64,000 bases of DNA from Minisyncoccota bacterium (lineage in GTDB: Bacteria; Patescibacteriota; Minisyncoccia; Phycocordibacterales; UBA918): positions 2,532 through 66,531 of the forward strand of contig JAGOON010000001.1 in the NCBI GenBank assembly GCA_017992505.1, given 5' to 3'. Under the pieces are notes generated by a model. It saw only the letters and a list, made by a program, of their open reading frames with translations, did not search any database and had not been told where the DNA came from. Below, one piece after another: positions 38,701-45,458 of this stretch (the stretch's first letter is position 1; the number at the start of each line of letters is the position of its first letter). Both the position numbers and the translations under genes were made by a program.

Positions 38701-39279
38701 TTATTTTTGCCGGGCTTCTTTAAGGGCTTGTCCCCACCACGCGAGTTGATCGAGCATACCCTTAAGTGAGTCGGTGTAAACATCAAGTGCACCTGTTTTT
38801 AGAGAGCCGTCTTCTTCAAGCAAAAACCATGGTGCTTGAATATGAACAGCATTTCGAGTAGAAGCCATTTGAAGCTCAACCGCTACCTGACGAAGCTGCT
38901 CAACCACGCGACCACCACCAACGCTCCCATATGACACAAAACCAACTGCTTTTTTATTCCATTCACCGTACACGACATCAAGCGCATTCTTAAGTACAGC
39001 AGTGTAACCATGATTGTATTCGGGAGCGATAATAAGGTACGCATCAGCTTCACCAATTTTCTTTGCCCAGGCATTTACGACATCGTTACCATACTCTCCA
39101 TTTTGAACATAGGCTGGACTCATCGGCATATCAAAATACGGAAGCTCATACTCACGCAAATCCAAAACCTCAATATTCATGTCATTTCGATTTCCTAATT
39201 CCGTCTCGAGCCACGGGAGTACCTTCTCACTAAAACGAGATGGTCTCGTACTTCCAACAATTACTTTTACATTTAACAT
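38701..39279 (-). CDS. NAD(P)H-dependent FMN reductase (flavodoxin-fold quinone/chromate reductase family)
   Basis: VIVGSTRPSRFS...LIIAPEYNHGYTAVLKNALD signature of the NADPH-dependent FMN reductase family. Confidence 0.75.
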   Translation of the reverse strand: MLNVKVIVGSTRPSRFSEKVLPWLETELGNRNDMNIEVLDLREYELPYFDMPMSPAYVQNGEYGNDVVNAWAKKIGEADAYLIIAPEYNHGYTAVLKNALDVVYGEWNKKAVGFVSYGSVGGGRVVEQLRQVAVELQMASTRNAVHIQAPWFLLEEDGSLKTGALDVYTDSLKGMLDQLAWWGQALKEARQK

Positions 39280-39320
39280 AACCTTTTTTAAATTTTATAA
39301 CTACATTGTTATGCAATTAC

Positions 39321-39380
39321 TTTACTTTGTAAAGTATATAACATATTTAGCAACACTAACTTTACATTGTAAAGTACGGG
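39321..39380. promoter_or_regulatory. Two palindromic operator candidates between the divergent FMN reductase and HxlR genes
   Basis: TTTACTTTGTAAAGTA and CTTTACATTGTAAAGTAC, with inverted arms TACTTT/AAAGTA and CTTTACA/TGTAAAG. Confidence 0.5.
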
Positions 39381-39394
39381 GACTATGGTATAGT

Positions 39395-39691
39395 ATGCAG
39401 ATGAAAGGTACGAAGACCACCTGCCCTATCACCAAAGTGGCGACCCTCCTCTCGGACACTTGGACGATGCTTATTATGCATGCGCTCACTGAGGGTCCGA
39501 AGCGTTTTTGCGAACTTGAAAACACACTTAGTGGTATCTCAACCCGCACTCTCACACTTAAGCTACAAAAACTAACTGCCGAAAATCTTATAGAAAAACA
39601 TAACAACCTGTACCGGGCAACAAAAAAAGGAGCTGGTCTCAAGATTATCGAAAAAGCCATGCGGAAGTATAGCGAGCAGTACTTAGACTAA
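39395..39691 (+). CDS. HxlR-family (MarR-like winged-helix) transcriptional regulator. The ORF track start 39179 is unlikely
   Basis: CPITKVATLLSDTWTMLIMHALTEGPKRFCELENTLSGISTRTLTLKLQKL is a full HxlR domain. Typical divergent partner of NAD(P)H oxidoreductases. Confidence 0.75.
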   Translation: MQMKGTKTTCPITKVATLLSDTWTMLIMHALTEGPKRFCELENTLSGISTRTLTLKLQKLTAENLIEKHNNLYRATKKGAGLKIIEKAMRKYSEQYLD

Positions 39692-40580: not shown

Positions 40581-41243
40581 ATGGAAATCAAACTCGAAGC
40601 AACATGGAAAAACGCTCTCCAAGCAGAATTTGAAAAGCCATATTTTCACAAACTTACCGAAAAAGTCCGAGCCGCCTACCTTACTGGTGGTGTCTATCCC
40701 CCGCCAAAGTTTGTCTTTAACGCCCTTAGTCTCTGCCCATTTAAAAATGTTCGAGTCGTCATCCTCGGACAAGACCCGTACCATGGCGACGGACAAGCGC
40801 ACGGACTTTCCTTTTCAGTTCCTGAAGGAGTACGAATTCCGCCTTCACTACAAAATATCTACAAAGAAATTGCGAGTGATCTAAATAAGCCAATTCCGCT
40901 TTCAGGTAACCTCGAACATTGGGCAACCCAGGGTGTCCTCCTTCTCAATGCCACACTCACTGTAGAGAGTAGCAAACCTGCCTCTCACCAAGGTTGGGGT
41001 TGGGAAATATTCACCGATGCGATTATTGAAACTATTTCCAAAAACAAGGAGCATGTGGTCTTTCTTCTCTGGGGAAACTACGCTCGTGCCAAAAGATCAC
41101 TTATCGATGGCACAAAGCATTTAATACTCGAGGCACCGCATCCCTCTCCCTTTTCAGCACATACTGGTTTTTTGGGGTGTAAACATTTTAGTAAAACAAA
41201 TGATTATTTGGCAAAGCATGACCTCCCAATAATTGAGTGGTAG
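40581..41243 (+). CDS. ung: Uracil-DNA glycosylase (family 1)
   Basis: ILGQDPYHG water-activating motif and HPSPFSA. TATAAT lies 7 nt upstream of the ATG. Confidence 0.85.
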   Translation: MEIKLEATWKNALQAEFEKPYFHKLTEKVRAAYLTGGVYPPPKFVFNALSLCPFKNVRVVILGQDPYHGDGQAHGLSFSVPEGVRIPPSLQNIYKEIASDLNKPIPLSGNLEHWATQGVLLLNATLTVESSKPASHQGWGWEIFTDAIIETISKNKEHVVFLLWGNYARAKRSLIDGTKHLILEAPHPSPFSAHTGFLGCKHFSKTNDYLAKHDLPIIEW

Positions 41244-41253
41244 ACTTTCCACT

Positions 41254-41826
41254 ATGCGAAATAGAATTATTCTTGGATGTATTCTTTTTACCATCATTAC
41301 TGGTGGCGGATATTATCTCTATCAAAAGTACAACCCTACCACCTACTACAGTGACAAAGTACACGTGCATTCTGACTTTATTATTGTTATCAACGACGAA
41401 CATGTACGCCTCACTGATGAAAAATATCAATCATCAGCTGAACATATTCGACACAAAAACATTCATGTTCATGACGGAAAGGACGATGTAGTACATCGAC
41501 ATGCTGAAGGTATTACATTTGCCGAATTTCTTCAATCAATCGGTTTTACCCTCACTGATACCTGTCTCACTAATGACAAGAATGAGACGTTCTGCACCGA
41601 TGACACCAATTCTCTCGTATTATTTGTAAATGGCGAACCTGCCTCCCCTACTACTTATATAAACCAAGAAGAAGACAGGATATTTCTTTACTACGGCACT
41701 CGCAACAATCCAAAATTGCAAGAGTACGACACACTCATTACCAACAACTCATGTTTTTACTCAGGCACTTGCCCCGAGCGTGGTATTGCTCCACCAGAGA
41801 GTTGCGGACTCACCTGTGAGTTATAG
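41254..41826 (+). CDS. Hypothetical membrane-anchored extracytoplasmic Cys/His-containing protein
   Basis: N-terminal TM, then a His-rich segment (HVHSDF...HIRHKNIHVHDGKDDVVHRH) and a C-terminal Cys cluster. No family recognised. Confidence 0.4.
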   Translation: MRNRIILGCILFTIITGGGYYLYQKYNPTTYYSDKVHVHSDFIIVINDEHVRLTDEKYQSSAEHIRHKNIHVHDGKDDVVHRHAEGITFAEFLQSIGFTLTDTCLTNDKNETFCTDDTNSLVLFVNGEPASPTTYINQEEDRIFLYYGTRNNPKLQEYDTLITNNSCFYSGTCPERGIAPPESCGLTCEL

Positions 41827-41828
41827 AA

Positions 41829-41860
41829 AAAAGCCGGCACTTGTGCCGGCTTTTTTCTAT
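41829..41860. terminator. Bidirectional terminator
   Basis: AAAAAAGCCGGCAC-ttgt-GCCGGCTTTTTTCT. Confidence 0.7.
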
Positions 41861-43389
41861 ACCGCTCCAGAAAAAAAATCTGTCTTAATCTGCTTTCGTG
41901 CTACACCTGCTTTCTGGAGGAGTTTCTTGTAGTTCTGCACCATACCTGGTGGACCTGAGATGTACCACGTTCGCTCCAAGAAATCTGGTGTGCGACGTAC
42001 CAACATATCGGCGGTTACAAAGCCCTTCTCAAAGGGTTCTGTAACCTCTTCTTTGGCAACCACTGGGATAAACGTGAATGCCATCTTCTCCGTCGCAGTA
42101 TTCCATAAGTCACCATACGCAACCTCATCTTTTGTGTTCACACAGTAATACAAAACGGTGTCATGTGACTTATCACTATCAATCATGTACTGCACATGAC
42201 TCCGAAACGGCGTCACCCCAATTCCACCAGCAATAAAACCAAGTTTTATGGAAGTCTTACCAGGAAGAAGAAAGTCTCCTGCTAATTGACTCGCAATAAC
42301 AGGCTTCTCAATATCAATTGACTGTAGTGTTTCTTTAAATGAACTTCTGTTTTCAAGAATCTTCATTGCCACTCGTAGCTCTGGTTCAGTCGGAGATGAT
42401 GCAATAGTGAAGTAGCGACGAATCCCCTTACTATCAGCGGGACTGTGTGGAAGCATCCATTCAAGATACTGTCCCGCTTCAAACGTAAAACCATGGGGTT
42501 TTTTGAAGGCAAACTCATAGGTATCTTTTGCCACTTTATATTTGGCCTCCAGTGAAAGAAAAAGTTTCTGCCGTAAGCGCCATGGAATCATCAATACATT
42601 TGCTACCACCAGAGCAAATTCAGGAGTAATGTGAATCAATCCCATAAACATTGAAGTATTGGAGAGAAACCCAACTATCCCACCGTACAAAAACTGCGCC
42701 TCCTTTTTGGCGGGCATGGTAAATGGTTCGGTCAGCATAAAGAATGCTAAAAAGAGCGTTGGCCATGAGGTAAAGAATGTCTTTACCGATGTCGTGATCA
42801 CGTCCCCATAACTCATTGCCTCAGCAAGGTAGATAATAATACTCACTCCCACAAAAGCCAGTACTGGCACCCACTTACGCACCTTCATCACTACCAAAAT
42901 ACCAAGTACCAACAACGGGATAAATAAGGTTGGATTTGCAACCCACCAACTAAACGTATAGAGGCCCGTCATACTAAGTACAGCAGCACCAAGTGCAGCT
43001 GGATTCATGAAGTGCTGCTTTTTGTAGACTAAGAAGTATTTTGAAGCAATACCAATTACTACCGCAGCAATCAGTGGCCACGTCGCAAAAATGTTCTCTT
43101 CTGGAAGCGCCAAAAAAAAGAGTATCAGTGCAGTAATAATTGCTGACTCATGATTAGCTGGAATTTTCAATATCCATGCCAATACAAAGTTACACACAAG
43201 CGCAACCAATATGGCTAGTGCTAAGGAAAAAATTTGACTCAGTCCACTGTACGGTAGCCAATCTAAAAACCCGAAGAGTATAGAGAGTGCCGCAAGTGTT
43301 GCAAGTGAACCAGAAACTAAGCGATACATTCCAATATTATCAACAAATTTTTGGGTAAGTGTGAATGGTTTTGAAATTAATGTAAACAT
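41857..43389 (-). CDS. Membrane-anchored FNR-like oxidoreductase (polytopic N-terminal domain fused to FAD- and NAD(P)-binding domains)
   Basis: About 270-aa multi-TM N-terminus, then RRYFTIASSP (FAD RxYS motif), GGIGVTPF (NAD-binding) and YISGPPGMV. Confidence 0.6.
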   Translation of the reverse strand: MFTLISKPFTLTQKFVDNIGMYRLVSGSLATLAALSILFGFLDWLPYSGLSQIFSLALAILVALVCNFVLAWILKIPANHESAIITALILFFLALPEENIFATWPLIAAVVIGIASKYFLVYKKQHFMNPAALGAAVLSMTGLYTFSWWVANPTLFIPLLVLGILVVMKVRKWVPVLAFVGVSIIIYLAEAMSYGDVITTSVKTFFTSWPTLFLAFFMLTEPFTMPAKKEAQFLYGGIVGFLSNTSMFMGLIHITPEFALVVANVLMIPWRLRQKLFLSLEAKYKVAKDTYEFAFKKPHGFTFEAGQYLEWMLPHSPADSKGIRRYFTIASSPTEPELRVAMKILENRSSFKETLQSIDIEKPVIASQLAGDFLLPGKTSIKLGFIAGGIGVTPFRSHVQYMIDSDKSHDTVLYYCVNTKDEVAYGDLWNTATEKMAFTFIPVVAKEEVTEPFEKGFVTADMLVRRTPDFLERTWYISGPPGMVQNYKKLLQKAGVARKQIKTDFFSGAV

Positions 43390-43470
43390 GGAACGTATAA
43401 CTTGGTGACGATAAATACTTGTATTATCAGGTAGTACGTCTCTTTATCTTTATAATTTCATCATTTTACC

Positions 43471-44076
43471 ATGCCCTACTTCATTGCCGTTCTCGCACTC
43501 ATTGTTGTGAGCGTTGGTTTTACACTTTTTAAATCTCCAATTGAAGTTGGGCAGACTACGACTGAACCAACATCGACAGAGTTTGTAAACGAGGCCGTAA
43601 ATGCACTTACGGCAACCAACACGCCCCAAACTAATACTGAGGAAGCAGTCGAAACAGTTAGAGTGGTTTCAAAAACAGAAGAGCCTACTTCGCAACCTGA
43701 GTCAACCATAGTGCCAGTGACACCAAAATCAACGACTCCGACACCCGTACCATCCCCGACACCGACACCGGTAATAACAACTGAGTACCGTAACGGTACC
43801 TATAATACCCAGACAAGCTATCGAACACCAGACGGAACCTACCGGATGGATGTCAGCCTTACTATCGCTAACGACAAAATTACCTCTACAAATCTAAGCT
43901 TTGATTCCAAAGGTGCGCGTGATGGGTATTCAAAGCGTTTTAGTAACTCATACCAAGGCCAGCTTATCGGACAAGACCTTGGGGATGTAAACTTGTCTCG
44001 AGTTGGTGGTGCTTCTCTAACCACAAAAGCATTTAACACTGCTATCGACTCCATCCGAAGCCAAGCCACATCTTAA
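43471..44076 (+). CDS. FMN-binding domain protein (ApbE substrate candidate), TM-anchored with Thr/Pro linker
   Basis: C-terminal FMN_bind-like domain (DGTYRMDVSLTIANDKITSTNLSFDS ... LSRVGGASLTTKAFNTAIDSI) with the flavinylation-type motif [S/T/G]GAS. N-terminal TM. Confidence 0.6.
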   Translation: MPYFIAVLALIVVSVGFTLFKSPIEVGQTTTEPTSTEFVNEAVNALTATNTPQTNTEEAVETVRVVSKTEEPTSQPESTIVPVTPKSTTPTPVPSPTPTPVITTEYRNGTYNTQTSYRTPDGTYRMDVSLTIANDKITSTNLSFDSKGARDGYSKRFSNSYQGQLIGQDLGDVNLSRVGGASLTTKAFNTAIDSIRSQATS

Positions 44077-44139
44077 GAGATTTTTAAAGAACAAAAATCT
44101 GTATTACAATGGCAGACATAAAATTAAATTAGTTATTGT

Positions 44140-44577
44140 ATGCCATACATTATTGCCGTTTTAGTTATTGCTGTTCTTGGAATCGGGTTTACACTCTTGC
44201 AATCAAATAAAGTAGAAGAGACCCCGACACCAGTAGTTCAAGAAGTAGCCGTTCCCAATACAGAAACCACTACCACCAATGATTACAGGGACGGAAGTCA
44301 CACTACTAAAGTTACCTATCTCACTCCAATGAAGAGTGAGTACATACTTGATGTAACTCTAATGGTCACAAATGACATCGTGACCGATGCACAGATTGTT
44401 TACAGTCAAGGTGCTGAGAATGACCCAAACGCACAGCGTTTTGAAACAGCTTACCGAACCGAAGTAATTGGAAAAGATATCGACACCCTCAATCTCTCTC
44501 GGGTTGGTGGAGCATCCCTCACAACCAGCGCATTCAACGAAGCACTTGCAAATATCAAGACCGACGCAAAGTCATAA
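44140..44577 (+). CDS. FMN-binding domain protein, paralogue of the preceding gene
   Basis: Same architecture and clear paralogy (N-terminal MPYIIAVLVIAV... and C-terminal NLSRVGGASLTTSAFNEALANI). Confidence 0.6.
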   Translation: MPYIIAVLVIAVLGIGFTLLQSNKVEETPTPVVQEVAVPNTETTTTNDYRDGSHTTKVTYLTPMKSEYILDVTLMVTNDIVTDAQIVYSQGAENDPNAQRFETAYRTEVIGKDIDTLNLSRVGGASLTTSAFNEALANIKTDAKS

Positions 44578-45458
44578 TGTCAAAACAATTCACATTTGAG
44601 GCCATTGGGACTCATTTTTGGATTGAGATTTTTGATGAAATATCAGACGAGGAGCTCAAGGCAACCCAAGGTCGCCTTGAGCTCCTTTCGTCTGTTTTTA
44701 ATCAGGAGTATTCACGCTTTCGTCCTGATTCATTTATCTCAGAACTAAACCGAGAACGTATTCTCCAAAATTCGACCAAAGAGTGTCGTGACCTACTCTC
44801 TCTTGGCAAAGAACTCTATACCCAAACGGAGGGCGTGTTTAATATCCTGACAGGACACATCCTTGAAGCACGTGGCTATGATGCCGAGTATTCGTTTAAA
44901 GCAAGGGAAGGAGTCGAGACACTTACCATGTGTAATCCACTTACTGATCTCAATATTTCTAAAAGTGAAATCACCCTCAGTTGTGGCAATGTTGATATTG
45001 GTGGTTACGGAAAAGGTTACTTGATTGACAAGCTCGCCCGTAACCTAAGAGGACATGGTATAAAATATTTTCTTGTGAACGGTGGAGGTGATATGTACGG
45101 GACAAGCAATCACGATGAACCAATCGAAATCTATCTTGAGCACCCGACCGAGGATAAGAAATACCTCACTAAAACAACACTTCTGAATCAGGGTTTCGCT
45201 GCTTCTTCACCATTCAAACGTCAGTGGAAACATGACGAGAAGACATACACGCATATTGTATCGAATAATGAGACGCCCAATCTCGCAGTATTTGTAAAAG
45301 CAGAAAATGGTGTTTTGGCTGACGCCTTTTCCAAGGCATGCCTACTTCTATCCGAAAACAATCTTCTTCAAATAGCAGAACCAGGGACTATTACATTCGC
45401 GAGATTTAATCCCGCCACTAACCAATTCTGGCAAACGAAAGGTTTTGATGCGATATAA
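44577..45458 (+). CDS. apbE: FAD:protein FMN transferase (ApbE family)
   Basis: DIGGYGKGYLIDKLA ApbE motif. Its start overlaps the stop of the preceding FMN-binding gene. Confidence 0.8.
   Translation: MSKQFTFEAIGTHFWIEIFDEISDEELKATQGRLELLSSVFNQEYSRFRPDSFISELNRERILQNSTKECRDLLSLGKELYTQTEGVFNILTGHILEARGYDAEYSFKAREGVETLTMCNPLTDLNISKSEITLSCGNVDIGGYGKGYLIDKLARNLRGHGIKYFLVNGGGDMYGTSNHDEPIEIYLEHPTEDKKYLTKTTLLNQGFAASSPFKRQWKHDEKTYTHIVSNNETPNLAVFVKAENGVLADAFSKACLLLSENNLLQIAEPGTITFARFNPATNQFWQTKGFDAI

Follow-up and report, generated by a model that had tools for sequence, protein, structure and literature searches.

A predicted NQR/RNF-like flavinylation locus with two paralogous FMN-bind proteins and a leaderless ApbE in a Minisyncoccota bacterium

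Gene content and the fusion protein

The locus described here lies in a 64-kb stretch of DNA from a Minisyncoccota bacterium (contig JAGOON010000001.1). This stretch is called the window below, and all window coordinates refer to its full length. The locus consists of four genes, whose open reading frames (ORFs) lie where a preliminary description of the sequence had placed them. On the reverse strand, positions 41857-43389 encode a 510-residue fusion of an NqrB/RnfD-like membrane domain to an NqrF-like domain, a fusion by which the NQR/RNF-like system is recognised. Divergently from this gene, the forward strand encodes two proteins with a domain of the flavin mononucleotide (FMN) binding type, one of 201 residues with a long tether (43471-44076) and one of 145 residues with a short tether (44140-44577). 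They are followed by a 293-residue transferase of the ApbE family, which attaches FMN to proteins from flavin adenine dinucleotide (FAD), and which belongs to a leaderless 'long' class (44577-45458). The stop codon of the 145-residue gene and the start codon of ApbE share one base (TAATG), in agreement with the overlap noted previously, and the ApbE gene is 1.2 kb from the fusion gene. No further FMN-bind, ApbE or fusion gene was found within the window.

The NQR/RNF-like system is defined by the fusion of PF03116 to PF00175 within a flavinylation gene cluster (Meheust 2021, eLife, PMC8238504). This is the arrangement in the window, where one protein has PF03116 at its N-terminus and PF00175 at its C-terminus, and where ApbE and proteins of FMN-bind fold are encoded in the same cluster. 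The label NQR/RNF-like used in the preliminary description is therefore appropriate, and the locus is very likely a member of this system. Its presence in the candidate phyla radiation (CPR), which that description considered unexpected, is in fact in line with the literature, in which the system is reported mainly from Actinobacteria and CPR (Meheust 2021, Huang 2024).

In the 510-residue protein, the Pfam family PF03116 (NQR2_RnfD_RnfE) is matched at 34.8 bits (cutoff 27.7) and PF00175 (NAD_binding_1) at 52.9 bits (cutoff 22), together with a weak match to FAD_binding_6. It shares 100% identity with KBC62_01265 from a Candidatus Pacebacteria metagenome-assembled genome, and the window matches contig JAGORD010000004.1 of GCA_018063005.1, which confirms the CPR origin. 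The protein was originally recognised as a polytopic protein fused to FAD- and NAD(P)-binding domains, which is correct, but its membership of the NqrB/RnfD family (PF03116) was missed. The two motifs on which that recognition was based, RRYFTIAS (residues 324-331) and GGIGVTPF (residues 388-395), are present, and are invariant in an alignment of homologues.

The FAD/NAD(P)H-binding domain comprises residues 275-510 (41860-42567, reverse strand). A profile of the fusion family (29 homologues) matches the FAD domains of NqrF in the PDB, with E-values of 4e-15 for 2r6h and 6e-15 for 7qty. An AlphaFold2 model of the whole protein has a pLDDT of 83, and a Foldseek search with this model returned members of the ferredoxin-NADP reductase (FNR) family and NqrF, with E-values down to 8e-17. 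The search was dominated by the FNR domain, and no NqrB/RnfD protein was among its top 50 matches. The C-terminal domain is closest to the FAD domains of NqrF. No 2Fe-2S domain was detected in the NqrF-like part, in which the matches begin at the FAD domain.

The membrane domain comprises residues 1-272 (42574-43389, reverse strand), as judged from a profile aligned to RsxD and from the positive charges in its loops. A phmmer search of this domain against the PDB returned nothing. The profile of the N-terminal part of the family aligns to E. coli RsxD with 32 bits, in two blocks that skip residues 143-236 of RsxD. The skipped segment contains the sequence DGISQAT (T187) in a periplasmic loop, and has no counterpart in the fusion family. 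T187 is reportedly the flavinylation site of RnfD (Backiel 2008), and its position matches. Another RsxD sequence, LLSGATM, was considered as the flavinylation site and rejected, the D-x-x-S-x-A-T site being DGISQAT in the periplasmic loop. No [ST]GA[ST]-like motif occurs anywhere in the fusion protein, which is therefore not itself a substrate of ApbE.

Averaged over 29 homologues, the number of Lys and Arg residues in successive loops is 3.0, 0, 0.8, 0.07, 2.9, 0, 3.0, 0.4, 1.4, 0.07 and 3.0. This strict alternation indicates ten transmembrane (TM) helices, with the N-terminus, the C-terminus and the FNR domain in the cytoplasm. Loop 141-153, the place at which the covalent-FMN loop of RnfD/NqrB is missing, is predicted to face the outside.

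The small FMN-bind proteins and their acceptor site

The 201- and 145-residue proteins are 31% identical (E 3e-29), which confirms the proposal that they are paralogues. Each has an N-terminal hydrophobic anchor (hydropathy 2.3-2.5), a linker and a C-terminal domain of the FMN-bind1 type. The linkers are of very different length. That of the longer protein has approximately 84 residues and is rich in Thr, Pro and Glu (22 Thr and 13 Pro), and that of the shorter protein has approximately 25 residues. The predicted flavinylation sites are Ser182 in the longer protein (nucleotides 44014-44016) and Ser126 in the shorter (nucleotides 44515-44517).

The preliminary description expected both proteins to score as FMN_bind domains, and named failure to do so as counting against its reading. 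In fact both are below the threshold. The 201-residue protein matches PF04205 (FMN_bind, cutoff 22) with only 13.1 bits (E 0.16), and the 145-residue protein gives no match. This is general in their family: a PF04205 match was obtained for only 13 of 39 members, always below threshold and at best with E 0.0039. Both proteins lack a Pfam annotation in the assembly GCA_018063005.1 (contig JAGORD010000004.1). A homologue search found 158 relatives, none of which has a precomputed Pfam domain, and all of the names that carry a taxon are Parcubacteria, Paceibacterota or Kaiserbacteria. A profile hidden Markov model of the family searched against PDB sequences likewise found no FMN_bind relative.

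This sub-threshold result is overruled by comparison of folds and by profile-profile comparison. The domain has the FMN-bind1 fold, a compact β-sheet with helices, with the acceptor Ser at the N-terminus of the last helix. Structurally it is best matched by 8p2a, one domain from a multi-FMN protein. When the family was compared using hhalign with 20 orthologous FMN_bind proteins that are recognised by Pfam, the two aligned over the whole domain with 96.6% probability (E 6.8e-10). In this alignment RVGGAS-LTT is in register with IVSGAT-xTS, so that the Ser occupies the position of the flavinylated Thr, as had been suggested from the motif alone. In the alignment of 39 family members, R121, V122, G124, A125, S126, L127 and T128 (numbering of the 145-residue protein) are invariant; the acceptor Ser, the conservation of which had been put forward as a check, is thus among them.

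The acceptor sequence S-R-V-G-G-A-S agrees with the canonical motif D-x-x-[ST]-G-A-[ST] in its G-A-S end; it lacks the Asp and the Ser/Thr at position 4. According to a review (PMC12052999), replacement of this Asp by Ala had minor effects and Ser is accepted as the modified residue; the same review terms the Asp strictly conserved.

Distribution of the module and location of ApbE

A scan of GTDB found 80 loci (L001-L080) that encode a homologous fusion protein. Judged by name, they comprise 27 CPR, 13 Actinobacteria, 11 Alphaproteobacteria, 7 Chloroflexota, 4 Spirochaetota and 18 others or unclassified. A small FMN-bind protein and ApbE are both present in 68 of the 80, which implies that the association is not due to chance. 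The FNR-like membrane protein is thus conserved together with apbE, as the preliminary description presupposed. The module is among the few membrane redox devices that CPR carry widely.

In 66 of the 80 loci the order is small protein, ApbE and fusion gene, co-directional and abutting. The divergent layout of the window is also found in L001, its closest relative in GTDB, and in the Paceibacteria contigs L085-L091. These relatives mostly have a single small protein, which may be long or short; the pair of a long followed by a short protein recurs in L091 (219 and 145 residues). The lineage of the window has inverted the fusion gene and has duplicated the small protein into copies with long and short tethers.

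Other arrangements were also observed. In L025 (4970-5970) and L008 (5463-5975), small FMN-bind genes, two of them in tandem in L025, are directly upstream of the fusion gene and no ApbE is nearby. Neither a small protein nor ApbE is beside the fusion gene in L007, L013, L035, L036, L049, L062 and L063, in which the upstream sequence is sufficient. Genes for subunits A, B and D of a V/A-type ATPase are immediately adjacent to the module on its ApbE side in L086 (1-3428), L087 (1-3120) and L090 (5630-8874), and are not found there in the window.

The 293-residue protein has a complete ApbE domain, in which the FAD-binding and catalytic motifs are kept. It matches PF02424 with 112.5 bits, in an alignment that spans positions 2-256 of the 266 in the profile, and has the expected DIGGYGKGY sequence at residues 140-148. 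From residue 5 onwards it aligns with the ApbE of known structure 5mgy (E 1.7e-10), with DIGGYGKGY and the His of a Y-T-H sequence (residue 226) aligned in the two proteins.

The ApbE proteins and the acceptor motifs both fall into two classes. In class I, ApbE has approximately 247 residues and starts with MKxTRILMGMPITVEV, and the acceptor motif is VD[IV][IV]SGAT; members are many CPR, Alphaproteobacteria, Chloroflexota and Spirochaetota. In class II, ApbE has approximately 290 residues and starts with FEAIGTxW (FEAIGTHFW in the window), and the acceptor motif is [LV][STD][KR]V[SAG]G[SA]S, without Asp; members are the window, Actinobacteria, Saccharibacteria and Uhrbacteria. Among the 64 loci classified using regular expressions, the class of ApbE agrees with that of the motif in 63 (40 class I and 23 class II for both). 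The one discordant locus, L039 (RISGASLTT), falls into class II when it is aligned. The 201-residue protein matches a class II profile with E 1.6e-29 and the class I FMN_bind profile with E 6.7e-06. Two lineages of ApbE thus appear to have co-evolved with two classes of acceptor motif. This pairing was not found in Meheust 2021 or Huang 2024, and it provides a directly testable handle on an uncharacterised system. Class II small proteins have poor scores on Pfam, where 19 of 22 give matches, the best with E 1.6e-6, and the subfamily of the window scores worse. There is thus a divergent class of FMN-bind domains that is missed by Pfam, and surveys based on it probably under-count the system.

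An exhaustive profile search using the small subunit found 3,038 cluster representatives (50%-identity clusters) at E ≤ 1e-3. Some of these relatives have tandem class II FMN-bind domains joined by linkers rich in Pro and Thr: seven copies in P0362 (1005 residues), three in P0361 (440 residues), and two in each of P0373 and P0414. The GGASLT-type motif is kept in nearly every repeat. Several of them share with the window an unusual MP[IV]Y anchor that has no positive charge. The existence of such fusions argues that the two small proteins of the window act in one pathway.

The location of ApbE is more difficult to explain. It had been assumed that this ApbE works outside the cytoplasm, and this is not supported: the protein has no leader peptide, and no signal peptide, lipobox or TM segment was identified in it. 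The crystallised constructs that it matches are truncated to remove their signal sequence; the ORF in the window has no in-frame start codon further upstream. The same test was applied to 70 module ApbEs from L001-L080, using the longest possible ORF in each case. At least 59 of the 70 are leaderless, with no more than 10 residues before the domain. The few longer N-terminal extensions are not hydrophobic, with one doubtful case (L038). As a positive control, the leader of the E. coli lipoprotein Ftp/ApbE was detected (hydropathy 2.84 and a lipobox). Leaderless ApbEs are found in every phylum sampled, while the FMN-bind substrate is anchored by a signal sequence or lipidated. We did not find this mentioned in Meheust 2021 or Huang 2024.

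It could be argued from this that the small proteins are not flavinylated by ApbE at all. ApbE would instead be a cytoplasmic FAD pyrophosphatase or a flavin-trafficking protein that supplies the fusion protein with non-covalent flavin, and the small proteins would bind flavin non-covalently or not at all. Such a role would be compatible with a transferase that is leaderless beside exported small proteins, and with an acceptor motif that departs from the canonical one. It sits badly with the invariance of the acceptor Ser/Thr and the preceding G-[AS], in register with SGAT, and with the co-variation of the two classes, which is what is expected of an enzyme and its substrate. The small-protein and ApbE genes abut or overlap, and, as noted above, a change of the Asp to Ala had minor effects and Ser is accepted. 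We consider this role unlikely, and infer that ApbE does flavinylate the small proteins.

A different way to reconcile a cytoplasmic ApbE with its substrate is to invert the topology of the small proteins. Their FMN-bind domains would then be inside, with the N-terminus out and the C-terminus in, and be modified there by the leaderless ApbE as part of an intracellular membrane-bound flavoprotein system. A cytoplasmic ApbE with a cytoplasmic target is known from K. pneumoniae (PMC12052999), and the small proteins of the window have only the residues MPY before the TM helix, without Lys or Arg, and a single Lys immediately behind it. A C-terminus outside is favoured by the negative net charge that follows the helix (-1 and -2 in the two proteins), and long linkers rich in Thr and Pro are typical for tethers at the cell surface. 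In the membrane domain, too, the vacated flavin site faces the outside. In the orthologues the situation is clearer: MKK signal anchors are present in class I proteins, and lipoboxes in the class II proteins of Actinobacteria, from which it follows that the orthologous small proteins are extracytosolic, and yet their ApbEs are equally leaderless. The inverted topology is thus very unlikely.

There remain three ways in which the small proteins, if exported, may be related to a leaderless ApbE. Flavinylation may occur in the cytoplasm before export, ApbE may be exported by an unrecognised route, or ApbE may have a different role. A tag of seven residues in an unstructured terminus is sufficient for modification by ApbE (PMC12052999), which favours modification in the cytoplasm before export. 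We suggest, very tentatively, that in NQR/RNF-like modules generally either a dedicated cytoplasmic ApbE attaches FMN before a Sec-type translocation or ApbE is exported by an unrecognised route. Twin-arginine export was considered as a general explanation and rejected, as N-regions of the RR type are found only in some actinobacterial orthologues, and in none of class I or the window. If flavinylation does precede export, FAD itself would not have to leave the cytoplasm, and this would suit minimal CPR cells. The combination of a leaderless transferase and an exported substrate is in any case a topological puzzle that bears on the maturation of flavinylated surface proteins.

Electron transfer, flanking genes and known systems

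The evidence from domains, fold and register agrees with the preliminary description in coupling a flavinylation locus to a membrane protein that would oxidise NAD(P)H. For a related complex from Ktedonobacter racemifer an AlphaFold-multimer model has been published, in which the NqrB/RnfD flavinylation site is lost (Huang 2024, mSystems, PMC11334425). The flavin site left vacant in the membrane subunit was proposed to be visited by the covalent FMN of the small subunit (PMC11334425). The published interpretation is that electrons flow one way, from NAD(P)H to the outside (PMC8238504, PMC11334425), and this matches the minimal membrane redox chain that had been suggested for the window.

We hypothesise that the FNR-type domain oxidises NAD(P)H in the cytoplasm, and that it binds FAD non-covalently at the RxY[ST] motif. 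Electrons would cross the membrane through the NqrB/RnfD-like domain with its ten predicted TM helices, where by homology to NqrB a non-covalent flavin may be present. They would then reach the FMN attached covalently by ApbE to Ser126 and Ser182 of the outward-facing FMN-bind1 domains. The difference in linker length suggests that one subunit docks close to the membrane and that the other relays electrons at a greater distance from it. By analogy with the published model, the FMN of the short-tether protein probably enters the outer flavin site that is vacant in the membrane domain. The paralogue on the long tether, a linker of some 84 residues rich in Thr and Pro, probably passes electrons further out to a soluble or surface acceptor. 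On balance, a fermentative CPR cell would dispose of reducing equivalents independently of quinone, or would reduce an external compound such as Fe(III). CPR are generally portrayed as fermenters that have no respiratory chain, and this module could allow them to re-oxidise NAD(P)H or to reduce external iron.

Several points weigh against this proposal. One of them is the leaderless ApbE, in the window and in at least 59 of the 70 loci. The acceptor sequence has neither the Asp nor the position-4 Ser/Thr of the canonical motif. The orientation of the window's small proteins, with the N-terminus in and the C-terminus out, is suggested weakly, by a small charge difference and by the orthologues. 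No candidate gene for a terminal acceptor is genetically linked to the module, and in the literature we found bioinformatic descriptions of the NQR/RNF-like system and no biochemical study of it. With these points taken into account, an NQR/RNF-like flavinylation-associated electron-transfer system that works in the way proposed is still the explanation that we favour, and as a whole we think it probable.

The membrane domain shares its ancestry with NqrB/RnfD, and a part in ion translocation is ascribed to NqrB. The module could on these grounds be an energy-coupled, Na+- or H+-translocating NAD(P)H oxidoreductase like NQR, or could run in reverse like RNF, using the membrane potential to import electrons. 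The V/A-type ATPase genes that abut the module in L086, L087 and L090 point in the same direction; neither the window nor the majority of loci have them there. Of the two transmembrane electron paths of NQR/RNF, the module has only one. Among the ORFs scanned and the called genes for about 10 kb to each side, there is no match to NqrA, NqrD or NqrE, or to RnfA, RnfB, RnfC or RnfE. The published interpretation, as noted, is of outward flow in one direction. An energy-coupled or reversed device therefore seems improbable here, and one-way outward transfer remains the preferred reading.

The fusion gene and the operon of small proteins and ApbE are separated by an AT-rich region of 81 bp (43390-43470), which presumably holds the promoters of both transcription units. 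A scan of this region for consensus promoters was uninformative, since it gave fewer sites than shuffled sequence, and no robustly conserved palindrome that could be an operator was found in it across relatives. An element resembling GTATTACTATA.CACTA recurs in the divergent intergenic regions of L086, L087 and L089, and is weaker in the window. Directly beside the start of the fusion gene there is a conserved ACGTAT(A/G)A, without an obvious Shine-Dalgarno sequence.

Convergent with the fusion gene is a gene at 41254-41826 (forward strand; the longest ORF starts at 41233) for a TM-anchored protein of 190 or 197 residues, which directly follows fpg and ung on the same strand. A cluster of His (HVHSDF ... 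HKNIHVHDGKDDVVHRH) and six Cys are conserved in this protein, which, to judge from these residues, is likely to be an extracytoplasmic metal-binding protein. It has 284 homologues, with no Pfam match, and all of the names that carry a taxon are Paceibacteria-type CPR. In L092 a homologue is divergent from a P-type cation ATPase. This protein was considered as an acceptor or partner of the module and rejected, as it is beside the module only in a close clade and elsewhere in distant genomes.

Between this gene and the fusion gene is an inverted repeat (41822-41861), with arms TATAGAAAAAAGCCGGCAC and GTGCCGGCTTTTTTCTATA of 19 nucleotides that are 100% complementary and a loop of 2 nucleotides. 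It is flanked by a run of A and a run of T, and lies between the stop codons of the two convergent genes. It probably acts as a bidirectional intrinsic terminator, which would bound the fusion transcription unit against the convergent fpg-ung-p197 operon.

It is worth adding that an NADPH-dependent FMN reductase (FMN_red, 124 bits) is encoded at 38701-39279 on the reverse strand, 2.5 kb from the module, and is adjoined by a gene for an HxlR-type regulator at approximately 39310-39690 on the forward strand. Some FMN_red proteins associated with ApbE are flavinylated (Huang 2024, PMC11334425). The FMN_red protein of the window was therefore considered as a cytoplasmic target of ApbE, and rejected because it has no GA[ST] acceptor motif.

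Of the known systems, the window has most in common with the NQR/RNF-like system as published: the signature fusion, the adjacent ApbE, the predicted membrane-anchored NqrC/RnfG-like FMN-bind protein, the absence of the NqrB/RnfD flavinylation site, and the reported taxonomic home in Actinobacteria and CPR. It differs in gene order, with a divergent fusion gene in place of one that ends a co-directional triplet, in having two tandem FMN-bind paralogues with a long and a short tether, and in that its FMN-bind domains score below the Pfam threshold and carry the class II sequence S-R-V-G-G-A-S, without Asp. Compared with Na+-NQR and RNF, the window has none of the subunits listed above among the genes covered, its NqrB-like domain has no covalent FMN site, and it has no quinone or ferredoxin end-point, so that a single outward path is presumed in place of the semicircular one.

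Proteins with several FMN-bind1 domains like beads on a string have also been described (Meheust 2021; Huang 2024; 8p2a, 8p2b), and 8p2a is the best structural match of the window's domain, as noted above. There the domains are repeats in one chain, whereas in the window they are encoded by separate genes, each with its own TM anchor.

The extracellular electron transfer (EET) system of Listeria monocytogenes (FmnB, PplA, EetAB, Ndh2) shares with the window an ApbE-family transferase, surface-tethered FMN-bind proteins and the proposed role of passing cytosolic reducing power outward. The preliminary description had accordingly put forward an EET-like locus (fmnA/fmnB/eetAB/ndh2) as an alternative. 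Beyond this common logic, the 201-residue protein does match the NCBIfam model of PplA, although far below threshold (E 0.025; 13.8 bits, where the cutoff is 325). No Ndh2, EetA, EetB, DmkA or ECF/RibU-type match was found in the same range of ORFs and called genes, and the membrane component is the NqrB/RnfD-NqrF fusion instead, which would be independent of quinone. FmnB is an extracytosolic lipoprotein supplied by an ECF/RibU flavin exporter (PMC9973259); the ApbE of the window is leaderless and not a lipoprotein. A locus of the Listeria type (FmnB/PplA/EetAB/Ndh2/DmkA) is thus extremely improbable. The ApbE of K. pneumoniae resembles that of the window in having no signal peptide (PMC12052999). 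Its substrate is a soluble cytoplasmic fumarate reductase, whereas that of the window is anchored in the membrane, and lipidated in orthologues, and hence exported.

From these comparisons, the locus does not add a new kind of system. It belongs to a kind that has been described computationally, with a rearrangement and a duplication that are specific to its lineage.

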